DNA of 64,000 nucleotides. Origin: Naegleria gruberi (lineage: Eukaryota). This document shows, piece by piece, positions 3,852 through 59,633 of this stretch. Every line of letters starts with the position of its first letter. Within the stretch, counting starts at the first letter, position 1. Location of the stretch: NCBI GenBank assembly GCA_000004985.1, contig GG738879.1, one strand, 5' to 3'. The translations under genes and the position numbers were made by a program. The notes beneath the pieces are model-generated. The model made no database searches. It was not told the DNA's origin and saw nothing but the letters and a program-made list of their open reading frames with translations.

Positions 3852-6800
3852 ATGTCTAAAAAACAACCAAGCGAACTTTCTATTGATGATTTGCTTCGGG
3901 AAATTGATCAGACTGTTTATGAGCAACCAAAGGAAAATACTCGTGAGATTCCATTCCAAATCAGAGGAAGTGGTCTTGTAGGAGATGTTTCCTTGTACAA
4001 TGTTGGCTTTCAATTTGGCAATGATTACTTTAAACATGCCGAAAAACAAGGAAAGGAAGCCTTCTCATCAACTCACGTTCCATTCCCAAAACAATTGGAA
4101 CCATCCGAGTATATGAAACAAGCCTATTTGACACCTAAATTGGAAAATGCTCAAGAGGATTATCGTATCTTCCCTAGATTATTTAAACCAAACGAATTGT
4201 ATTCATTGGCTGTTTCCAAACCAAAATATGTTATTGAAACAGTTAAAGATCCATTCACTGGAAAAATTAAAGAATGCAAAGAGATTTATAGTCCACAAGC
4301 AAATGACACTTCAAAATCCTCAACATCATTATTGAGACAACCTGCTGCCAGTAAAGACTTTGTTAGAGGTAGCAGTCACAATGTTCCTTTCCATTTTGGA
4401 GGTATTGATAGAGATGAAGAAAGAGGAATTGAACAAGTTTTGGAAGGAGAAGCTGAAGCTAACAATGAACCTACTATTGTCAATGTCTTTGATAGACCAA
4501 TTGAAGAGGAATTGAAGTTATTATCTCAACAAGACAATGAAAAGGATTACTCTTCAGTCGTTGATGGTTTGGAAACAAGACCAAGTGGATTCAAACATGG
4601 TCTCTTCCATTCTGCCAACAAAAGTCAAGCTAATATTGACACTACTGATTTGAATGCTTTGGCTGTCGGTAAAAATCAACAAGGATTATTGGATGCCTAC
4701 AAGCAGGATATTTCTAATTACAATATTGATGGAAATGAAGAAGTTTTCTTGTCTGTCGAACAACAAAGAGAACTCAGAAGAAGAGAAGAATCTAGAAATA
4801 GAAAGGAACAATTACTCAATTTTACAGAAGTCTTTTCGTCAACACTATCTGATGATCCATTTGGAAATATTGAAGAAGATTACAGTGAAAATAACCAAAC
4901 TAATGGACAAGTTGCTACTTCTGGTAGCTCTCCAACTGTTCAAGCATCAGCTGAAGAAGAAAAACAAAAACAAGTTGCTGAAATTAGAAAAGTTAAAAAC
5001 AGATCTGAATATACTATTGATGATCTTTTGGATGCCGATGAAGATGTCTTGTATTCCTCATTTATCAAGAAGCAAGGTAAAAGACAAAAAGAAAATGAAT
5101 ATGCCATCATGTCTCGTGTTGATGTTTCTAACTTTAAGCAATTAGTCCCAGAAATGGCTATTCAATATCCTTTTGATTTGGATATTTTCCAAAAAGAAGC
5201 TGTTTACCACTTGGAAAATAATGAAAGCGTCTTTGTTTCTGCCCACACTAGTGCTGGTAAAACTGTTGTTGCCGAATATGCTATTGCTCTGGCACAAAAA
5301 CACTTGACAAGAGTTATCTATACCTCTCCAATCAAAACTCTATCTAACCAAAAGTTCCGTGAATTCAAAAAGACCTTTGGTGATGTTGGTATCTTAACAG
5401 GTGATGTTCAAATCAATCCAACTGCTACTTGCTTAATCATGACAACAGAAATTTTGCGTTCCATGTTATATAAGGGTGCTGACTTGATCAGAGATGTTGA
5501 ATGGGTCATTTTCGATGAAGTTCACTACGTCAACGATCCTGAAAGAGGTGTCGTTTGGGAAGAAGTTATTATTATGCTTCCAAAACATATTAACCTTATT
5601 TTACTCTCAGCTACAATTCCAAATACCTATGACTTTGCTGATTGGGTTGGTAGAACCAAGAAAAAGAAGATTCACGTCATTCAAACATTCAAGAGACCTG
5701 TTCCTCTTGAACATCATTTGTACTATAATGGAAATATTTACAAGATTGTCGATTCCAATTCTAAATTCCTTGCTGCAGGTTATAGATCTGCTCTTTCAGC
5801 TGAAGAAGAAAAGGAAGAAAAGAATAAGAGTAGAGGTGGATTCAAAAAGACACCATATTCCAAGCTGATTGAAACTCTCAATAAGAAGAATTTACTTCCT
5901 GCTGTTACTTTCGTTTTCAGTAGAAAACAATGTGAAGATATCGCCATTTCTCTTCAAAATACAGATCTCAATGAGGCTGGAGAAAAGAATGAGATTCACA
6001 GATTTATTAATCAATCAGTTTCCAGATTGAAGGGATCTGATAAGGAATTACCTCAAATTGTGAGAATTTCTGACTTGCTCAAGAGAGGTATTGGTATTCA
6101 CCACTCTGGTTTATTACCAATCGTTAAGGAAATTGTAGAAATTTTGTTTTCAAAAGGTCTTATCAAGGTACTCTTTGCTACAGAAACATTTGCTATGGGT
6201 GTTAACAGTCCAACAAAGACTGTAGTTTTCAACACATTATGGAAGTTTGATGGTAGAGACAAGAGAGATTTATTGTCTGGAGAATATATTCAAATGAGTG
6301 GTAGAGCTGGTAGAAGAGGTCTCGATACTGTTGGTAACGTTATTATCAATTGTGCTTCTGAAATTCCTGAAGAACCTCTTCTCCAAAGATTAATCCTTGG
6401 TAAAGCAACTCACCTTGAAAGTAAATTCAAGTTGAGTTACAACATGATTTTGAACTTGATGAGAGTTGAAGATTTCAAGATTCAAGACATGATTAAGAGA
6501 TCCTTCTCTGAGAGCAGAACTCAACAAATTGTACCAAACAAGGAACTTTTGCTTAAGAGTAAGGAAAAGTTGGCAGAAATTGAGAATATTGATTGTATTA
6601 ACGGAGAACCTGCTATCGAACCATTCTATGCTGTTGCAAGAGATTTAGAAGATTTGAACTACAAGATTACAATGGAAGTCATGACAAATTCAAAGGTTGG
6701 AACATTGTTAACATTTGGTAGAGTTGTTGTTGCTAGATACAAGCTTGGATATACTTTGGCCATTCTTGTTCGTCAAGATACTTCAACCACCAATAAGGAT

Positions 6801-47495: not shown

Positions 47496-48017
47496 TAATA
47501 AATAATAAATATATTATAGAAGAGTAATATAAAAATTTGATGATGATGATATAAAGACTTGTATAAACTGTTAAATATATAAAGCAAACAGATAAAGTAA
47601 AATCTGCTGCTATTCAATATATATTATTATAAAATTTAAACCTATTTCCTCTCCAAATTAACAATATATCTGATGCTAGATTATTGTTACTCTTGGTGTT
47701 GATGCAAAGGTGGTGGAGAGAATATTTTTTAGAGAAAGTTTTTTCCACCACCAACATCAAATTGAACAAGGAAGTTTGGACAGCAAAAAGCGAATGAATC
47801 TTTTTGGGCGTTTAGCATATCTTGAGTGCTATCTATTCAATCTGGGCAGTAATAATGGCTTTTGTATCAATGAGACAGAACCATTAATGCTCCTTATCAT
47901 TGTTTCAACAGTTATAATTTGAAAAATCTTTAAGAATATCTGATTGTTTGTTGTGGGGAGTGGATGATGATGTGTATAGGAATTATATTATTAATTAATA
48001 AAACTTTTAAAACAAAA

Positions 48018-49978
48018 ATGTCCGAATTGTACCATCCATCACCATCAGACCTCATGTTGGCACCATCAAGTTTGTTGGTGTTTGACTTTGATAGTACATT
48101 GGTTAGAGAGGAAAGTTTGGTCACCATGTTGGAGTATGCTTTGAGAGAAGAATACGGAAATGATGAAGAAAAAATTGAGAAAGCTATTGAACAAATCAAG
48201 GAAATTACAAACAAGGGAATTAAAGGAGAAATTACAATGGATACTTCTTATGCAAACAGAGTTGGTACAGTTAAACCAACAAGAAAACATTTGGAAAAAT
48301 ATTTACAAAGACCAATTGATCAAATTTTAACTCCAAAAATGGATATTGTGAGTAAGTGTAATTTGTGGAATTAATATTTATTGGAAAATTTAGTTCAAAA
48401 TGTTAGAGAGCATTATCCTTCTGTTCAAATTCATGTTATTTCTCAAGGACCAAAAGTAATAGTTGAACATTATTCTAAATTATTATTTGGAATTCCAAGT
48501 GAAAATATTCATGCTGTAAATGTAAATTTCCCAGAGGATGGAGTAGATGTTTCAACTCATGAATATATTTCTCCTCAAGATGAAATGTTAGTGAAAGGAA
48601 AAAGTGGAATTTTACAAAAAGTTATTGATGGAATTAATTCACAATATACCACAACAGGAACAAAGGTTGAAAATATCATTGTCGTTGGAGATGGTGTATC
48701 AGATATGAATATGAAACACAAAGGACCTGCAACAGTTGCCATAGGTTTTGGTGCTCACTTACTTTTCCAAAAAACTAAGGAATTGGCAGATTATTATGTA
48801 ACTGATTGTGATCAATTGAATCAATTATTAATTGAAAGACTTTTAAGAGATATGGTAAGCTATAACTTCTTCCCTGGTCCTGCAACAATTCCAACTGAAA
48901 TCATGTTAAAAGTCAAAGATAATCTTGTTTGCTTTGATAGAGGTATTTCTGTTTTTGAATATTCACACCGTTCTCCAAAATTTTTAAATGTTTTAAGCAA
49001 TGCAGAAAAGAAACTCAGAAAAATTGTAGATATACCAGACGATTATGCTGTTCTCTTCTTACAGTAAGTTTTCATTTTACATATTTTGAAATATTTTGAA
49101 AAAGAGGAGGAGCCTATACTCAATTCTCAGCAATACCAATGAATCTTTGTGAAAATACTGATAATTCTGCCATTTATTTGGTATCTGGTATTTGGTCAAA
49201 GAAGGCCTATCAAGAAGCAAAGGAATTTATGGGTGGAAATGTTCAACAATTGAGTTTAGAAGAAGCTGATACAATTACATCCAATGAATTCTATACTCGT
49301 TGCTCTTATGTTTATTATTGTGATAATGAAACAGTTCATGGTGTTGAGAAGCCGAATGACTTCCTTGACCAAGTCTCCAAAGATGGTAAAATATTAGTTT
49401 GTGATATGAGTTCAAACTTTTTATCTAGACCTGTCAATGTTAGAAAGTATGGTCTCATTTATGCATGTGCCCAAAAGAATTTTGGTATTGCTGGGCTCAC
49501 AATTGTAATTATTAGAAAGGATTTAATTAAGGAAAGGGAAAATTATGTTCCTTCAATGCTCGACTATCAAGCATTATATGAAGAAAAATCACTTCTCAAT
49601 ACACCTGTCACTGCAGCAATTTATGTTGCTGACTTGGTATTTGATTGGATTATTGAGATTGGCGGATTATCTGCTCTGAATGAATTGGCTATTAAGAGAT
49701 CAAATCTGCTCTATGACACTTTAGAAAAATCATCATTCTTTGAAGTTCCAATCAAGGAGGACATTCGTTCAAGAATGAATGTTGTTTTCAAGATTAAGAA
49801 GGAAAGTTTAGAAAAGACTTTTGTTAAGGAAGCTGAAAAGGTTGGATTGATTGGATTGCCAGGTCACAGAAGTGTTGGAGGATTCAGAGCTAGTCTTTAT
49901 AATGGTATGTCAATGAAAGGAGTTGAGAGACTTTGCAAATTTATTCAAGCATTTGAAAACAAGTTCAATACTCAATAA
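48018..49978 (+). CDS. Bifunctional fusion: an N-terminal HAD-superfamily phosphoserine phosphatase (SerB/PSPH-like) joined to phosphoserine aminotransferase (SerC/PSAT). Three exons: 48018..48351, 48394..49063 and 49105..49978. About 625 aa.
   Basis: HAD motif I FDFDSTLVREE (the SerB-type DxDST..E). Motif IV IVVGDGVSDMNM. PSP C-terminus ...ADYYVTDCDQLNQLLIERLL. In the same exon and with no stop, the PSAT N-terminus follows: NFFPGPATIPTEIMLKV...HRSPKF...DYAVLFLQ. After a 41-nt intron come GGAYTQFSAIPMNL...AIYLVSGIWSKKA...KNFGIAGLTIVIIRKD...HRSVGGFRASLYN. Introns of 42 and 41 nt (GTAAGT...ATTTAG and GTAAGT...GAAAAAG) restore the frame. Confidence 0.7.
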
Positions 49979-52679: not shown

Positions 52680-54422
52680 ATGGTAAGTTTTCTCTTGTAT
52701 TATGTGAGTCACTAATCAAGCCTTAAAAATTAGTCTGCTGTTGCACAACAATCAAAGACGCAATCCATCACACATGAAGAGTCTTTGACTCTAATGAGAA
52801 ATTTGATGAGAACTGCAATATCTTCTGTTTGCTATTTGAGAAATTTATTTCCTGAGGATTGTTTTCAAGACAAGTCTCTGAGTGGAATCCAAATCAAGTC
52901 TCTTCAGCCTTCAAATGAGGAGGCAAGAACACTTATCGATTGGTTAGAGAAGGGTGTGTTTGAAGCCTTGAAGAAGAAATATCTGAGAACTATAATCTTT
53001 GGAGTCTGTTCTGATCCAAGTAGAGAAATTGATTCAATGCTTGAGAGCTATGAATGTAAGTATTACACAAACTGGTTTGTTCAATTATCTGCTCTATCAG
53101 TCAAAGTAACCTATCCGGATAAGGAAGAAGGCCAGTTGAACATCTCAAGAGCAGCTGATTCGAACAAGACTAATAAGAAGATTGGAATTAAAGGAACTCA
53201 AACCAAACAAGAAATTACTCAATCAATGGTTATGATGCTTAGAACCCTCATCACTCTTGCTCAGACACTTCAACCAATTCCAGAAACTAGATATATTACC
53301 ATGAAACTACTCTACTATGAAGATGTTACTCCTAGAGATTATGAGCCATCTTTCTTTAGAGCTTTGAGAGAGGATGAATCCAGAAAATTCAATCAAGATT
53401 TTGTCAAACTGAAGATTGGGCAAGTTCAAACTCAATATCACTCGTTGAATATTCGTGTAAGAACCGCATCTGAATCATTTGAAGATGAAGATGGTAAATC
53501 AGTCACCTCAGAGATGTTATCCTCCTGCCCTATAGACAAGAATAATTCACATCCAACCTCCTCTCAATGGGCTGTCAATGTACCAGAGAATAAGCTCGAA
53601 ACAAAGAAGGAATATGATAGCGATTCGACTCAGCTTTCCCAACAGGATGACAACACTAAGCAATCAAGCAGTTGTGAAGAGAAATTATTCCTTGCAGATT
53701 TGGAAAAGATTGGTTGGTTCAATTTCCAACTCAAATCTGTCAGTAAACTATTATCCAACAAGTATCCATCTGTCACGGGCGAAATAGCTAAAGAATTGGT
53801 AATTGCCAAGAGAACCAAACTGGTCAAAGATATGGAAGATCATGAGAAGACCTATTACAAAGCACTTGCATATGTTTTAGAAGAGGATCATATTACAGCA
53901 AGTTCTCTATCCAGTGAATTAGATATCAGTTCCTACTCAGCAACCAAGTTAATCTCCCAAATGGAAAAGGAGGGTCTCCTTAAAGCTGCCTCAACAAAGA
54001 GAAAAGGGAAGAAGGTAATGCACAACAATAAGAGACTTGAAGAAGCAAAAGAGTTCATTGAATTTGAACAGTATTTGAAGCAACCTAAGACTGAATCCAC
54101 CTCCTCTCCATCCAAATCACCAGAAGCTAAAAAGAAGCAAGAATTTGATTATTCGGACTCTGATTCAGAAATTTCAAATCATGAAGAGAGTGATATCAAA
54201 CCAACTCCCAAAAAGGCTGTTCATTCCTCACCAACCGTCACTAGTCCACCAAAGCAACCTGAATCAGTTGATAAAAGAGGTGTAAAGAGAAAGACTATTT
54301 CTCAATTTGAAGTCAGTCACAGTCAAGATGAAATAACTGCCAATGATAGAGAGAATGAAGAAAATCCATCATCTTCTAAGGTGGATTTGGATTCAATCAA
54401 CTACAGTTACTCAATTTTGTGA
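52680..54422 (+). CDS. HORMA-domain protein (Hop1/HORMAD/ASY1-like meiotic axis component). The model is ATG (52680..52682) directly followed by a 51-nt intron, then 52734..54422.
   Basis: HORMA N-terminal signature ...ESLTLMRNLMRTAISSVCYLRNLFPEDCF...GIQIKSL...WLEKGVFEALKKKYL...IIFGVCSD. The safety-belt region TQSMVMMLRTLITLAQTLQP is present. AAAATG|GTAAGT...ACTAAT...TTAG lies immediately upstream of an in-frame continuation (SAVAQQSKTQSITHEESLTL-). The intronless alternative is ATG at 52794. Confidence 0.6.
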
Positions 54423-58845: not shown

Positions 58846-58937
58846 TTTTTTTAATATTCTTTTAAATGTTTAATAATAGATTTAATGATGTAAGAACGAA
58901 CACACAACAATTAAGAAAATTAATAATTTACAAAAAA

Positions 58938-59633
58938 ATGTCTTCAAAAGAATTGAAAAAGTTATTGAAAGGTCTTCCGAAATTAAAAACACCATCCAAA
59001 AAATTACCCTTCGCATCATCAAGTAATAATAAATTTAATTTATCGGAATCTTCTAAAACAAAAGCTACTGTCGGTCATATCAGAGTTTCAGACAAATTAA
59101 AGGATTGTATCTTTGATTCAATCAAAATACGGAATTTAACAAGGGATATATTGAAATTTACACCACATAAAGATTATGGGGTGACAGTATTATTTTGTGG
59201 AAATAAGTATATTACATCTTTGAATGAAAAGGATAGAAAGAAGAAAGGCCCAACAGATATTCTCTCATATCCTGTTTATTCTCCAGATTTGGATCATAAT
59301 TTTGCATTGATGGAGAAGGATGCTGCTTTTAATGATGATTTGGCAAAATTACTAGCTGATGAACATAAAATCTTAATGGAAGAGGAAAAGTTTTTAGGAG
59401 ATATGGTCATTTCTCAACCTTACATTGTTGATTATTGTAAGGAAAATAATATTTCATTGGATCATCATATGGCTCTTTTATTGACTCATGGAATTTTACA
59501 CTTGATGGGCTATGATCATGAAACTGATTCAGATTATGCAATTATGAAAGAAAAGGAAGACGAAATATTGAGTGGTTTAGAAAAGAAGTATGGCAAAGAA
59601 GAATGGAGTAAACTTAAAGTAACAAAAAGCTAA
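58938..59633 (+). CDS. YBEY: YbeY-family metallo-endoribonuclease (rRNA maturation factor), probably targeted to an organelle.
   Basis: Zinc motif H..LH...GYDH (LLTHGILHLMGYDHETDSD). The N-terminal basic extension (MSSKELKKLLKGLPKLKTPSKK) is consistent with a presequence. Confidence 0.6.
   Translation: MSSKELKKLLKGLPKLKTPSKKLPFASSSNNKFNLSESSKTKATVGHIRVSDKLKDCIFDSIKIRNLTRDILKFTPHKDYGVTVLFCGNKYITSLNEKDRKKKGPTDILSYPVYSPDLDHNFALMEKDAAFNDDLAKLLADEHKILMEEEKFLGDMVISQPYIVDYCKENNISLDHHMALLLTHGILHLMGYDHETDSDYAIMKEKEDEILSGLEKKYGKEEWSKLKVTKS

Follow-up and report, generated by a model that had tools for sequence, protein, structure and literature searches.

The stretch of DNA analysed here (the window) comprises 64,000 nucleotides (nt) of contig GG738879.1 of Naegleria gruberi (assembly GCA_000004985.1). 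On its plus strand, between positions 48018 and 49978, lies a gene of three exons whose product combines an N-terminal phosphoserine phosphatase (PSP)-like domain of the HAD-IB class with what sequence comparison identifies as a C-terminal phosphoserine aminotransferase (PSAT). The spliced coding sequence of 1878 nt specifies 625 amino acids (aa) and contains zero internal stop codons. The following features were recognized, all of them on the plus (+) strand:

48018-48020 (+): start codon ATG, read from the sequence
48018..48351 (+): exon 1, comprising codons 1-111 and ending after the first base of codon 112
48018..48845 (+): coding span, including intron 1, of the PSP-like HAD-IB domain (residues 1-262)
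48084-98 (+): HAD motif I in exon 1, D23-F-D25-S-T (DFDST, residues 23-27), from the motif scan
within 48108-22 (+): E32 in exon 1, a cap-domain residue matching a PSP substrate ligand
within 48255-69 (+): R81 in exon 1, a cap-domain residue matching a PSP substrate ligand
48352..48393 (+): intron 1, 42 nt, GTAAGT...TAG, introducing an in-frame stop if retained
48394..49063 (+): exon 2, encoding the remainder of the HAD domain, the domain junction and the N-terminus of the PSAT
48441-52 (+): HAD motif II in exon 2, S128-Q-G-P131
within 48594-608 (+): HAD motif III in exon 2, G180-K181
48687-704 (+): HAD motif IV in exon 2, G210-D-G-V-S-D215
from 48786 (+): C-terminal HAD helix in exon 2, ADYYVTD (residues 243-249)
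48846-63 (+): six-residue junction RDMVSY in exon 2
48864-84 (+): PSAT N-terminus in exon 2, NFFPGPA (residues 269-275)
48864..49975 (+): coding span, including intron 2, of the PSAT domain (residues 269-625)
48963-74 (+): PSAT motif SHRS in exon 2
49064..49104 (+): intron 2, 41 nt, GTAAGT...AAG, splitting the PSAT motif FLQGG after FLQ
49105..49978 (+): exon 3, encoding the remainder of the PSAT and the stop codon
49187-98 (+): PSAT motif GIWS in exon 3
49325-42 (+): PSAT motif NETVHG in exon 3
49400-14 (+): PSAT motif CDMSS in exon 3
49469-86 (+): motif of the pyridoxal 5'-phosphate (PLP)-binding lysine in exon 3, AQK459NFG (AQKNFG, residues 457-462)
49595-606 (+): PSAT motif LNTP in exon 3
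49862-94 (+): PSAT motif GHRSVGGFRAS in exon 3 (residues 588-598)
49976-49978 (+): stop codon TAA

In the unspliced sequence frame 0 encounters a stop codon inside each of the two introns, and beyond intron 2 the open reading frame (ORF) goes on in another frame. An earlier reading of this DNA from its letters alone, the sequence-only reading, had proposed that two introns of 41-42 nt restore the frame, and this was borne out: their removal gives a clean 625-aa ORF which matches XP_002675213.1 (EFC42469.1; UniProt D2VL37_NAEGR, N. gruberi NEG-M, gene NAEGRDRAFT) at every residue. A motif scan of the spliced protein located every motif quoted in that reading at the residues given for it, among them FLQGG (residues 333-337), which straddles intron 2. 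At both intron sites the spliced product aligns without gaps to its orthologues, including those which have no introns. The positions of the introns are also conserved. Two genomic fragments of the Naegleria group (P0121 and P0122) start as ORFs within intron 1, and these two together with the Naegleria-like fragments P0126 and P0128 all stop at "...AVLFLQ", the site of intron 2.

The 625-aa gene model is already public; its PSP half, however, has gone unrecognized, and the literature that could be searched contains no description of it. The public product name of D2VL37 is "phosphoserine aminotransferase" only, and the phosphatase, which accounts for 42% of the protein, is left unmentioned. 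XP_002675213.1 belongs to a 90% cluster whose representative is another sequence, P0121, a 228-aa exon-2 fragment from a metagenome; listings restricted to representatives under-report this protein, and probably other spliced eukaryotic proteins too. Homologue searches with only the HAD domain as query likewise failed to bring up the full-length fusions again. Upstream of the accepted start, window positions 47964-48017 contain three in-frame ATGs within 18 codons 5' of it, which would encode MMMCIGIILLINKTFKTK. The public model lacks this extension and Naegleria lovaniensis shows nothing comparable; 47964-48017 is probably 5'-untranslated region; if translated, it would give a hydrophobic N-terminal extension.

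The C-terminal half, residues 269-625, scored 430.6 bits against NF003764 (cutoff 253, E 4e-129), covering model positions 4-355 of 357, and 134 bits against Pfam Aminotran_5 (PF00266; cutoff 21.5, E 8e-39). With TIGR01364 (SerC_1) the score was 429.1 bits, slightly below the stricter cutoff of 443.6, against only 33.8 bits with the SerC_2 model. A phmmer search of the PDB aligned positions 4-357 of this half to residues 6-360 of Arabidopsis PSAT1 (AtPSAT1; 6CZX, E 5.7e-94). Using Foldseek, the PSAT half of a full-length AlphaFold2 (AF2) model of the N. lovaniensis orthologue gave template-modelling scores on the target (TMt) of 0.86-0.90 to most solved PSATs, including 1BJN, 6CZZ and 8A5V. 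The segments AQK459N, S302-H-R304 and G588-HRSVGGFRAS598 align to AtPSAT1 and hardly vary across an alignment of 67 sequences, and the motifs GxW, NETxHG, CDMSS and NTP are also present. Lys459 is presumably the lysine that forms the Schiff base with PLP, and SHR and GHRSVGGxRAS are taken to be the phosphate- and carboxylate-binding segments of the E. coli and plant PSAT structures. By these comparisons a complete SerC_1-type PSAT, with the fold of a fold-type-I aminotransferase, occupies residues 269-625.

The N-terminal half finds its best NCBIfam match in TIGR00338 (serB; E 1.8e-14). A single-sequence search of the PDB returned human PSPH (1L8L, E 1.6e-15) and the Francisella "phosphoserine phosphohydrolase-like protein" (3KD3, E 1.8e-15). 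At E<1e-3 a profile constructed from nine fused HAD domains retrieved 17 PDB sequences, nearly all of them PSPs or PSP-like by name and headed by 3KD3 (4e-32) and human PSPH (4e-24). The exceptions were a Salmonella HAD-family hydrolase (4EZE) and a bidomain enzyme from Dunaliella (6IUY, E 1.7e-16). An AF2 model of an orthologous HAD domain, with a predicted local distance difference test score (pLDDT) of 91.7, displays the helices of a C1 cap in the stretch from strand 1 to motif II. The top 13 Foldseek matches of this model are all PSPs or the PSP-like 3KD3, the nearest structures being 3KD3, human PSPH (TMt 0.80-0.82), MjPSP and SerB2. Across 13 fusion sequences D23, D25, S26, T27, E32, R81, S128-Q-G-P131, G180-K181, G210-D211-G212 and S214-D215 are invariant; in HMMER alignments this set matches human D20, D22, E29, R65, S109, K158, D179, T182 and D183. 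The counterparts of E32 and R81 (Glu20 and Arg56 in MjPSP, Glu29 and Arg65 in the human enzyme) are the ligands of the serine moiety in the 1L7P and 6HYY complexes, where they contact its amino and carboxylate groups. The claim of one polypeptide of about 625 aa, with a PSP-type HAD domain at its N-terminus and a complete PSAT at its C-terminus, is thus upheld by the hidden Markov model (HMM), PDB and Foldseek matches.

The two domains meet inside exon 2, where the whole junction (LLIERLLRD, MVSY and NFFPGPA in direct succession) contains no stop; GDGVSD and NFFPGPA lie within the same exon and, as had been claimed, no stop separates them. A search for full-length homologues revealed seven two-domain proteins, all other matches being stand-alone PSATs of 346-433 aa. 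Five of these seven are the proteins of N. lovaniensis (628 aa, 72% identity), Willaertia magna (624 aa, 58%) and Acrasis kona (613 aa, 46%), a 612-aa protein from a JGI metagenome and a 646-aa Logan protein. Seven of eight further fragments continue across the same junction into NFxxGPA; the eighth, P0129, ends directly after the HAD domain. Three metagenomic relatives, free of introns here, encode the fusion as a single genomic ORF (L002, 646 aa; L004, 606 aa; L005, 612 aa), and a partial sequence, P0006 on L001, is likewise one continuous ORF across the fusion. In none of the 13 or more fusion sequences does the PSP ORF possess a stop codon of its own. The search for orthologous fusions that the sequence-only reading had suggested therefore yielded at least 12 related sequences which cross the same junction, intron-free single ORFs included. 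These comparisons indicate that the PSP-PSAT fusion is real and conserved across Heterolobosea.

The junction measures six residues in Naegleria and 15-25 in the other orthologues. In the AF2 model of the complete N. lovaniensis protein (pLDDT 93.3, predicted template-modelling score (pTM) 0.87) a helix spanning residues 252-268 leads directly into the first PSAT strand, and the junction itself is predicted to be helical (pLDDT 86-87). No solved structure spanning both domains was found by Foldseek, the template-modelling score on the query (TMq) reaching at most 0.53. At the nucleotide level the domain junction of N. gruberi coincides exactly with an ATG followed by GTAAGC (48852-48860), which mimics a start codon and a splice donor. 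The methionine concerned, Met265 (ATG 48852-54), occurs only in N. gruberi, being replaced by C in N. lovaniensis and by F in Willaertia, with no Met in any orthologue; the arrangement is a coincidence.

Against D2VL37 being a bifunctional PSP-PSAT stand the score of the HAD half with TIGR00338 (53.9 bits, below the cutoff of 144.15) and with Pfam HAD (23.3 bits, below the cutoff of 27), a motif II which reads S-Q-G-P in all fusion proteins versus the S-G-G of canonical PSPs, the replacement of human Asn133 by Val153, the algal precedent of a PSP-like domain, fused to glycerol-3-phosphate dehydrogenase (GPDH), that has seemingly been retargeted to glycerol-3-phosphate (6IUY; PMC7468427), and an exact look-up of the 625-aa protein among assembled public runs, which gave no match. 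The same look-up with one neighbouring ORF gave none either. The score with the HAD-SF-IB model (25.1 bits, cutoff 45) is also too low, and because the cutoffs of TIGR00338, HAD-SF-IB and Pfam HAD were all missed the domain is filed here as PSP-like HAD-IB and not as a SerB equivalog. The label "SerB-type" given in the sequence-only reading consequently holds for fold, motifs and best match and fails at the curated cutoff (53.9 versus 144 bits). The TIGR00338 cutoff is likewise missed by stand-alone proteins of this HAD subfamily, which score 48-94 bits. In SQGP the Gln presumably takes the place of the glycine whose backbone amide contacts the phosphate in PSPH. By sequence the HAD half is a divergent PSPH/3KD3-like HAD-IB subfamily, and not a certified SerB equivalog. 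The score below the SerB cutoff, the SQGP motif II, the algal precedent, a weak Pfam match to Put_Phosphatase (PHOSPHO1/2-like, 16 bits) and the fact that 3KD3, the nearest solved relative, is itself named merely "PSP-like" would suit a true fusion whose HAD domain hydrolyses another phosphoester (3-phosphohydroxypyruvate, phosphoglycolate, PLP or pyridoxamine 5'-phosphate), acts as a ThrH-like phosphotransferase, or serves the PSAT as a regulatory module binding serine or phosphoserine. Such a role is improbable: the significant PDB and NCBIfam best matches are PSPs, the Glu and Arg which bind the amino-acid moiety in MjPSP and human PSPH are invariant, the product of the partner domain is exactly phosphoserine, and the invariance of all catalytic residues makes a purely regulatory function unlikely. 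A PHOSPHO2-like PLP phosphatase in particular was considered and set aside, its Pfam match being much weaker than the evidence for a PSP. Phosphoserine phosphatase activity of the HAD half is, by its residues and matches, very likely.

The continuous ORF might still give rise to two separate enzymes, through an internal start of transcription or translation at Met265 or through proteolysis in the junction. The ATG of N. gruberi lies four codons 5' of NFFPGPA and would yield MVSYNFFPGPA, a typical N-terminus for a stand-alone PSAT; since Met265 is unconserved, with other residues elsewhere in place of the C and F already mentioned, a PSAT gene of its own with ATG 48852 as start codon was rejected. 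The phosphatase ORF lacks its own stop in 13 or more sequences, and six residues of predicted helix in Naegleria do not resemble a flexible, cleavable linker, so that two enzymes are most improbable. Less credible again, to the point of being negligible, is an artefact, that is, an assembly chimera or an incorrect model joining two adjacent genes. The dependence of the gene model on two predicted introns and the absence of the HAD half from the product name could be cited for it. The junction lies within one exon with no stop, and independent assemblies, from no fewer than four named species as well as several metagenomes, show the same junction. Since nothing interrupts the fusion ORF in three relatives, it cannot be an artefact of intron modelling; these intron-free orthologues rule out a gene-model or assembly artefact, and any messenger RNA (mRNA) which carries the phosphatase must therefore encode the PSAT too.

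With these alternatives weighed, we consider it highly probable that D2VL37 is a bifunctional enzyme catalysing the last two steps of the phosphorylated pathway of serine synthesis. The PSAT half, with PLP held as a Schiff base on Lys459, would convert 3-phosphohydroxypyruvate and glutamate to O-phospho-L-serine and 2-oxoglutarate. The PSP half, a HAD-IB phosphatase expected to depend on Mg2+ and capped by a helical C1 module, would then hydrolyse phosphoserine to L-serine and phosphate. In this second reaction Asp23 is the expected nucleophile, forming an aspartyl-phosphate intermediate, and Asp25 the expected general acid/base; Ser128, Lys181, Asp211 and Asp215 would complete the catalytic core, and Glu32 and Arg81 would hold phosphoserine by its amino and carboxylate groups. 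In the human enzyme the hydrolysis of phosphoserine is the irreversible, pathway-driving step (PMC11139964). Encoded by one mRNA, the two catalysts of Naegleria would be co-expressed at 1:1 stoichiometry and kept in proximity, the last helix of the phosphatase running almost straight into the first strand of the PSAT with some six residues between them. PSATs are obligate homodimers, and for this reason the expected particle is probably a PSAT-type homodimer bearing two phosphatase domains, (PSP-PSAT)2. A cytosolic location and a kinetic advantage from proximity or channelling are inferred. Substrate channelling between the PSAT and PSP sites is hypothetical, the short helical junction and the two-domain model with pTM 0.87 being indirect hints that bear upon it. 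The strongest form of the idea, in which the fusion is the sole PSP of heterolobosean amoebae and also a rigid (PSP-PSAT)2 particle passing phosphoserine from site to site, a "mini-serinosome", is speculative and on balance doubtful.

In an exhaustive profile search with the HAD domain, covering 1.84 billion representatives, 1829 matches were obtained, headed by the fusions and then by stand-alone proteins of approximately 220-250 aa. Among the latter is P0133, a complete stand-alone PSP-like ORF of 223 aa with SAGP as motif II, from a transcript (GECH01005095.1) of Pharyngomonas kirbyi, the deepest-branching heterolobosean. P0130 (L006:6891-7568) and P0129 (L007:663-1418) are also stand-alone and possess the SQGP motif II of the fusions; the contig of P0130 is eukaryotic, and a convergent gene follows P0130 immediately. 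A rough neighbour-joining tree, which has no bootstrap support, grouped the fusions with P0130, P0129 and P0136, with Pharyngomonas outside this group and the Francisella-type proteins further out. The sequences suggest that a single fusion event probably took place within Heterolobosea after Pharyngomonas had split off; the stand-alone P0130 and P0129 genes may be pre-fusion forms or secondary products of fission. Two other architectures involving the same HAD subfamily were observed: P0257 (426 aa), in which it is fused to an ACT domain and the N-terminal lobe of SerA, the NAD-binding domain being absent, and P0205 (519 aa), in which it accompanies a BioC-like methyltransferase.

The neighbours of the fusion gene in the window are unrelated to the serine pathway: a divergent upstream RRM protein and an unknown protein are succeeded by HORMA, DPP-IV, YbeY, zinc finger and OYE genes. 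No gene for 3-phosphoglycerate dehydrogenase (PGDH) was found within the 64-kb window, and the notion of a serine-pathway gene cluster there was rejected on that ground. The HORMA-domain ORF occupies window positions 52785-54422 (+), its C-terminal part having a weak, sub-threshold match to FtsK-gamma/winged-helix domains, and the homologue of the YbeY endoribonuclease lies at 58866-59633 (+). The situation on L002 (Logan SRR32315873; eukaryotic, GC 51%) is different. The intron-free fusion (L002:102-2042) is followed 3 kb downstream, on the same strand, by a PGDH gene with one apparent intron (5005-6416, +; 438 bits with NF008759, cutoff 404), so that all three activities of the serine pathway reside within 6.4 kb, with PAP2 and PPR genes in between. 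The proximity of PGDH on L002 and the SerA fusion in P0257 connect this HAD subfamily with serine synthesis, if only circumstantially.

When consecutive enzymes are naturally fused, this is a classic sign of functional coupling, and the PSP-PSAT protein would lend independent evolutionary support to the idea behind the proposed human serinosome, namely that PSAT and PSP gain from proximity. With both activities in a single protein it would allow channelling to be measured, and it is a candidate phylogenetic marker within Heterolobosea. It also exposes a gap in naming. The orthologues are called only "phosphoserine aminotransferase" or "hypothetical protein" and, because the PSP half is unnamed, reconstructions of Naegleria metabolism may wrongly call phosphoserine phosphatase absent. 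Naegleria fowleri, if it shares the fusion, would possess an enzyme architecture unlike that of its host. Were the "mini-serinosome" to prove true, it would constitute Rosetta-stone evidence for a direct functional interaction of PSAT and PSP in other eukaryotes, humans included, a shared derived character of Tetramitia and a structurally distinct target in pathogenic Naegleria.

The sequence-only reading knew of no description of this architecture. No description of a PSP-PSAT fusion was found in the full-text literature, subscription-only papers on Naegleria metabolism excepted, and to that extent the claim stands; the orthologous and identical sequences, on the other hand, were already in the databases. 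The combination of PSP with PSAT, its conservation across Heterolobosea and the seemingly rigid junction appear to be undescribed.

Human PSPH (1L8L/6HYY) and Francisella 3KD3 share with the fused HAD domain the HAD-IB fold, the helical C1 cap, the residues of motifs I, III and IV, the Glu and Arg ligands and a size of approximately 220-260 aa. The fused domain differs from them in its low sequence identity (22-24%), in possessing SQGP rather than SGG, in a longer cap insertion (residues ~40-60) and in its C-terminal helix, which continues into the PSAT domain and does not end the protein as in stand-alone PSPs. The stand-alone SerC_1 PSATs (E. coli SerC, 1BJN; AtPSAT1, 6CZX; human PSAT1, 8A5V) resemble the fused PSAT over its full length with 41-48% identity, all motifs and the PLP lysine, whereas the fused enzyme has neither an initiator Met of its own nor a transit peptide and carries a 262-residue phosphatase, covalently joined a few residues ahead of the NF(F/S)xGPA active-site segment.

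Among multi-enzyme systems, the PGDH-PSAT fusion of oomycetes, brown algae and Thecamonas covers steps 1 and 2 of the pathway; it is mitochondrial, its C-terminal PSAT is of the SerC_2 (TIGR01365) type, and channelling or co-regulation has been proposed as its rationale (PMC2705460, PMC5715807). Like the Naegleria protein it unites two consecutive enzymes of the serine pathway in one polypeptide of a protist. The Naegleria fusion, in contrast, covers steps 2 and 3, has a SerC_1-type PSAT and gave no 2-Hacid_dh match in Pfam and NCBIfam scans. The human "serinosome" is a proposed reversible, non-covalent metabolon of PHGDH, PSAT and PSP (PMC11139964), in which the same pair of activities, PSAT and PSP, would work close together; it is transient and made up of three proteins, whereas the linkage in Naegleria is covalent and PGDH is encoded separately. 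The closest architectural analogue is the bidomain PSP-like-GPDH of the algae Dunaliella salina and Chlamydomonas, which makes glycerol (PMC7468427), from which it follows that the specificity of its PSP-like domain has apparently shifted to glycerol-3-phosphate. Here too an N-terminal PSP-like HAD domain, homologous to that of Naegleria, precedes the enzyme that makes its substrate, although that partner is glycerol-3-phosphate dehydrogenase and pathway and lineage differ. Beside PGDH-PSAT (steps 1 and 2) and the retargeted PSP-like-GPDH, the PSP-PSAT protein of Naegleria (steps 3 and 2) would supply the missing combination.

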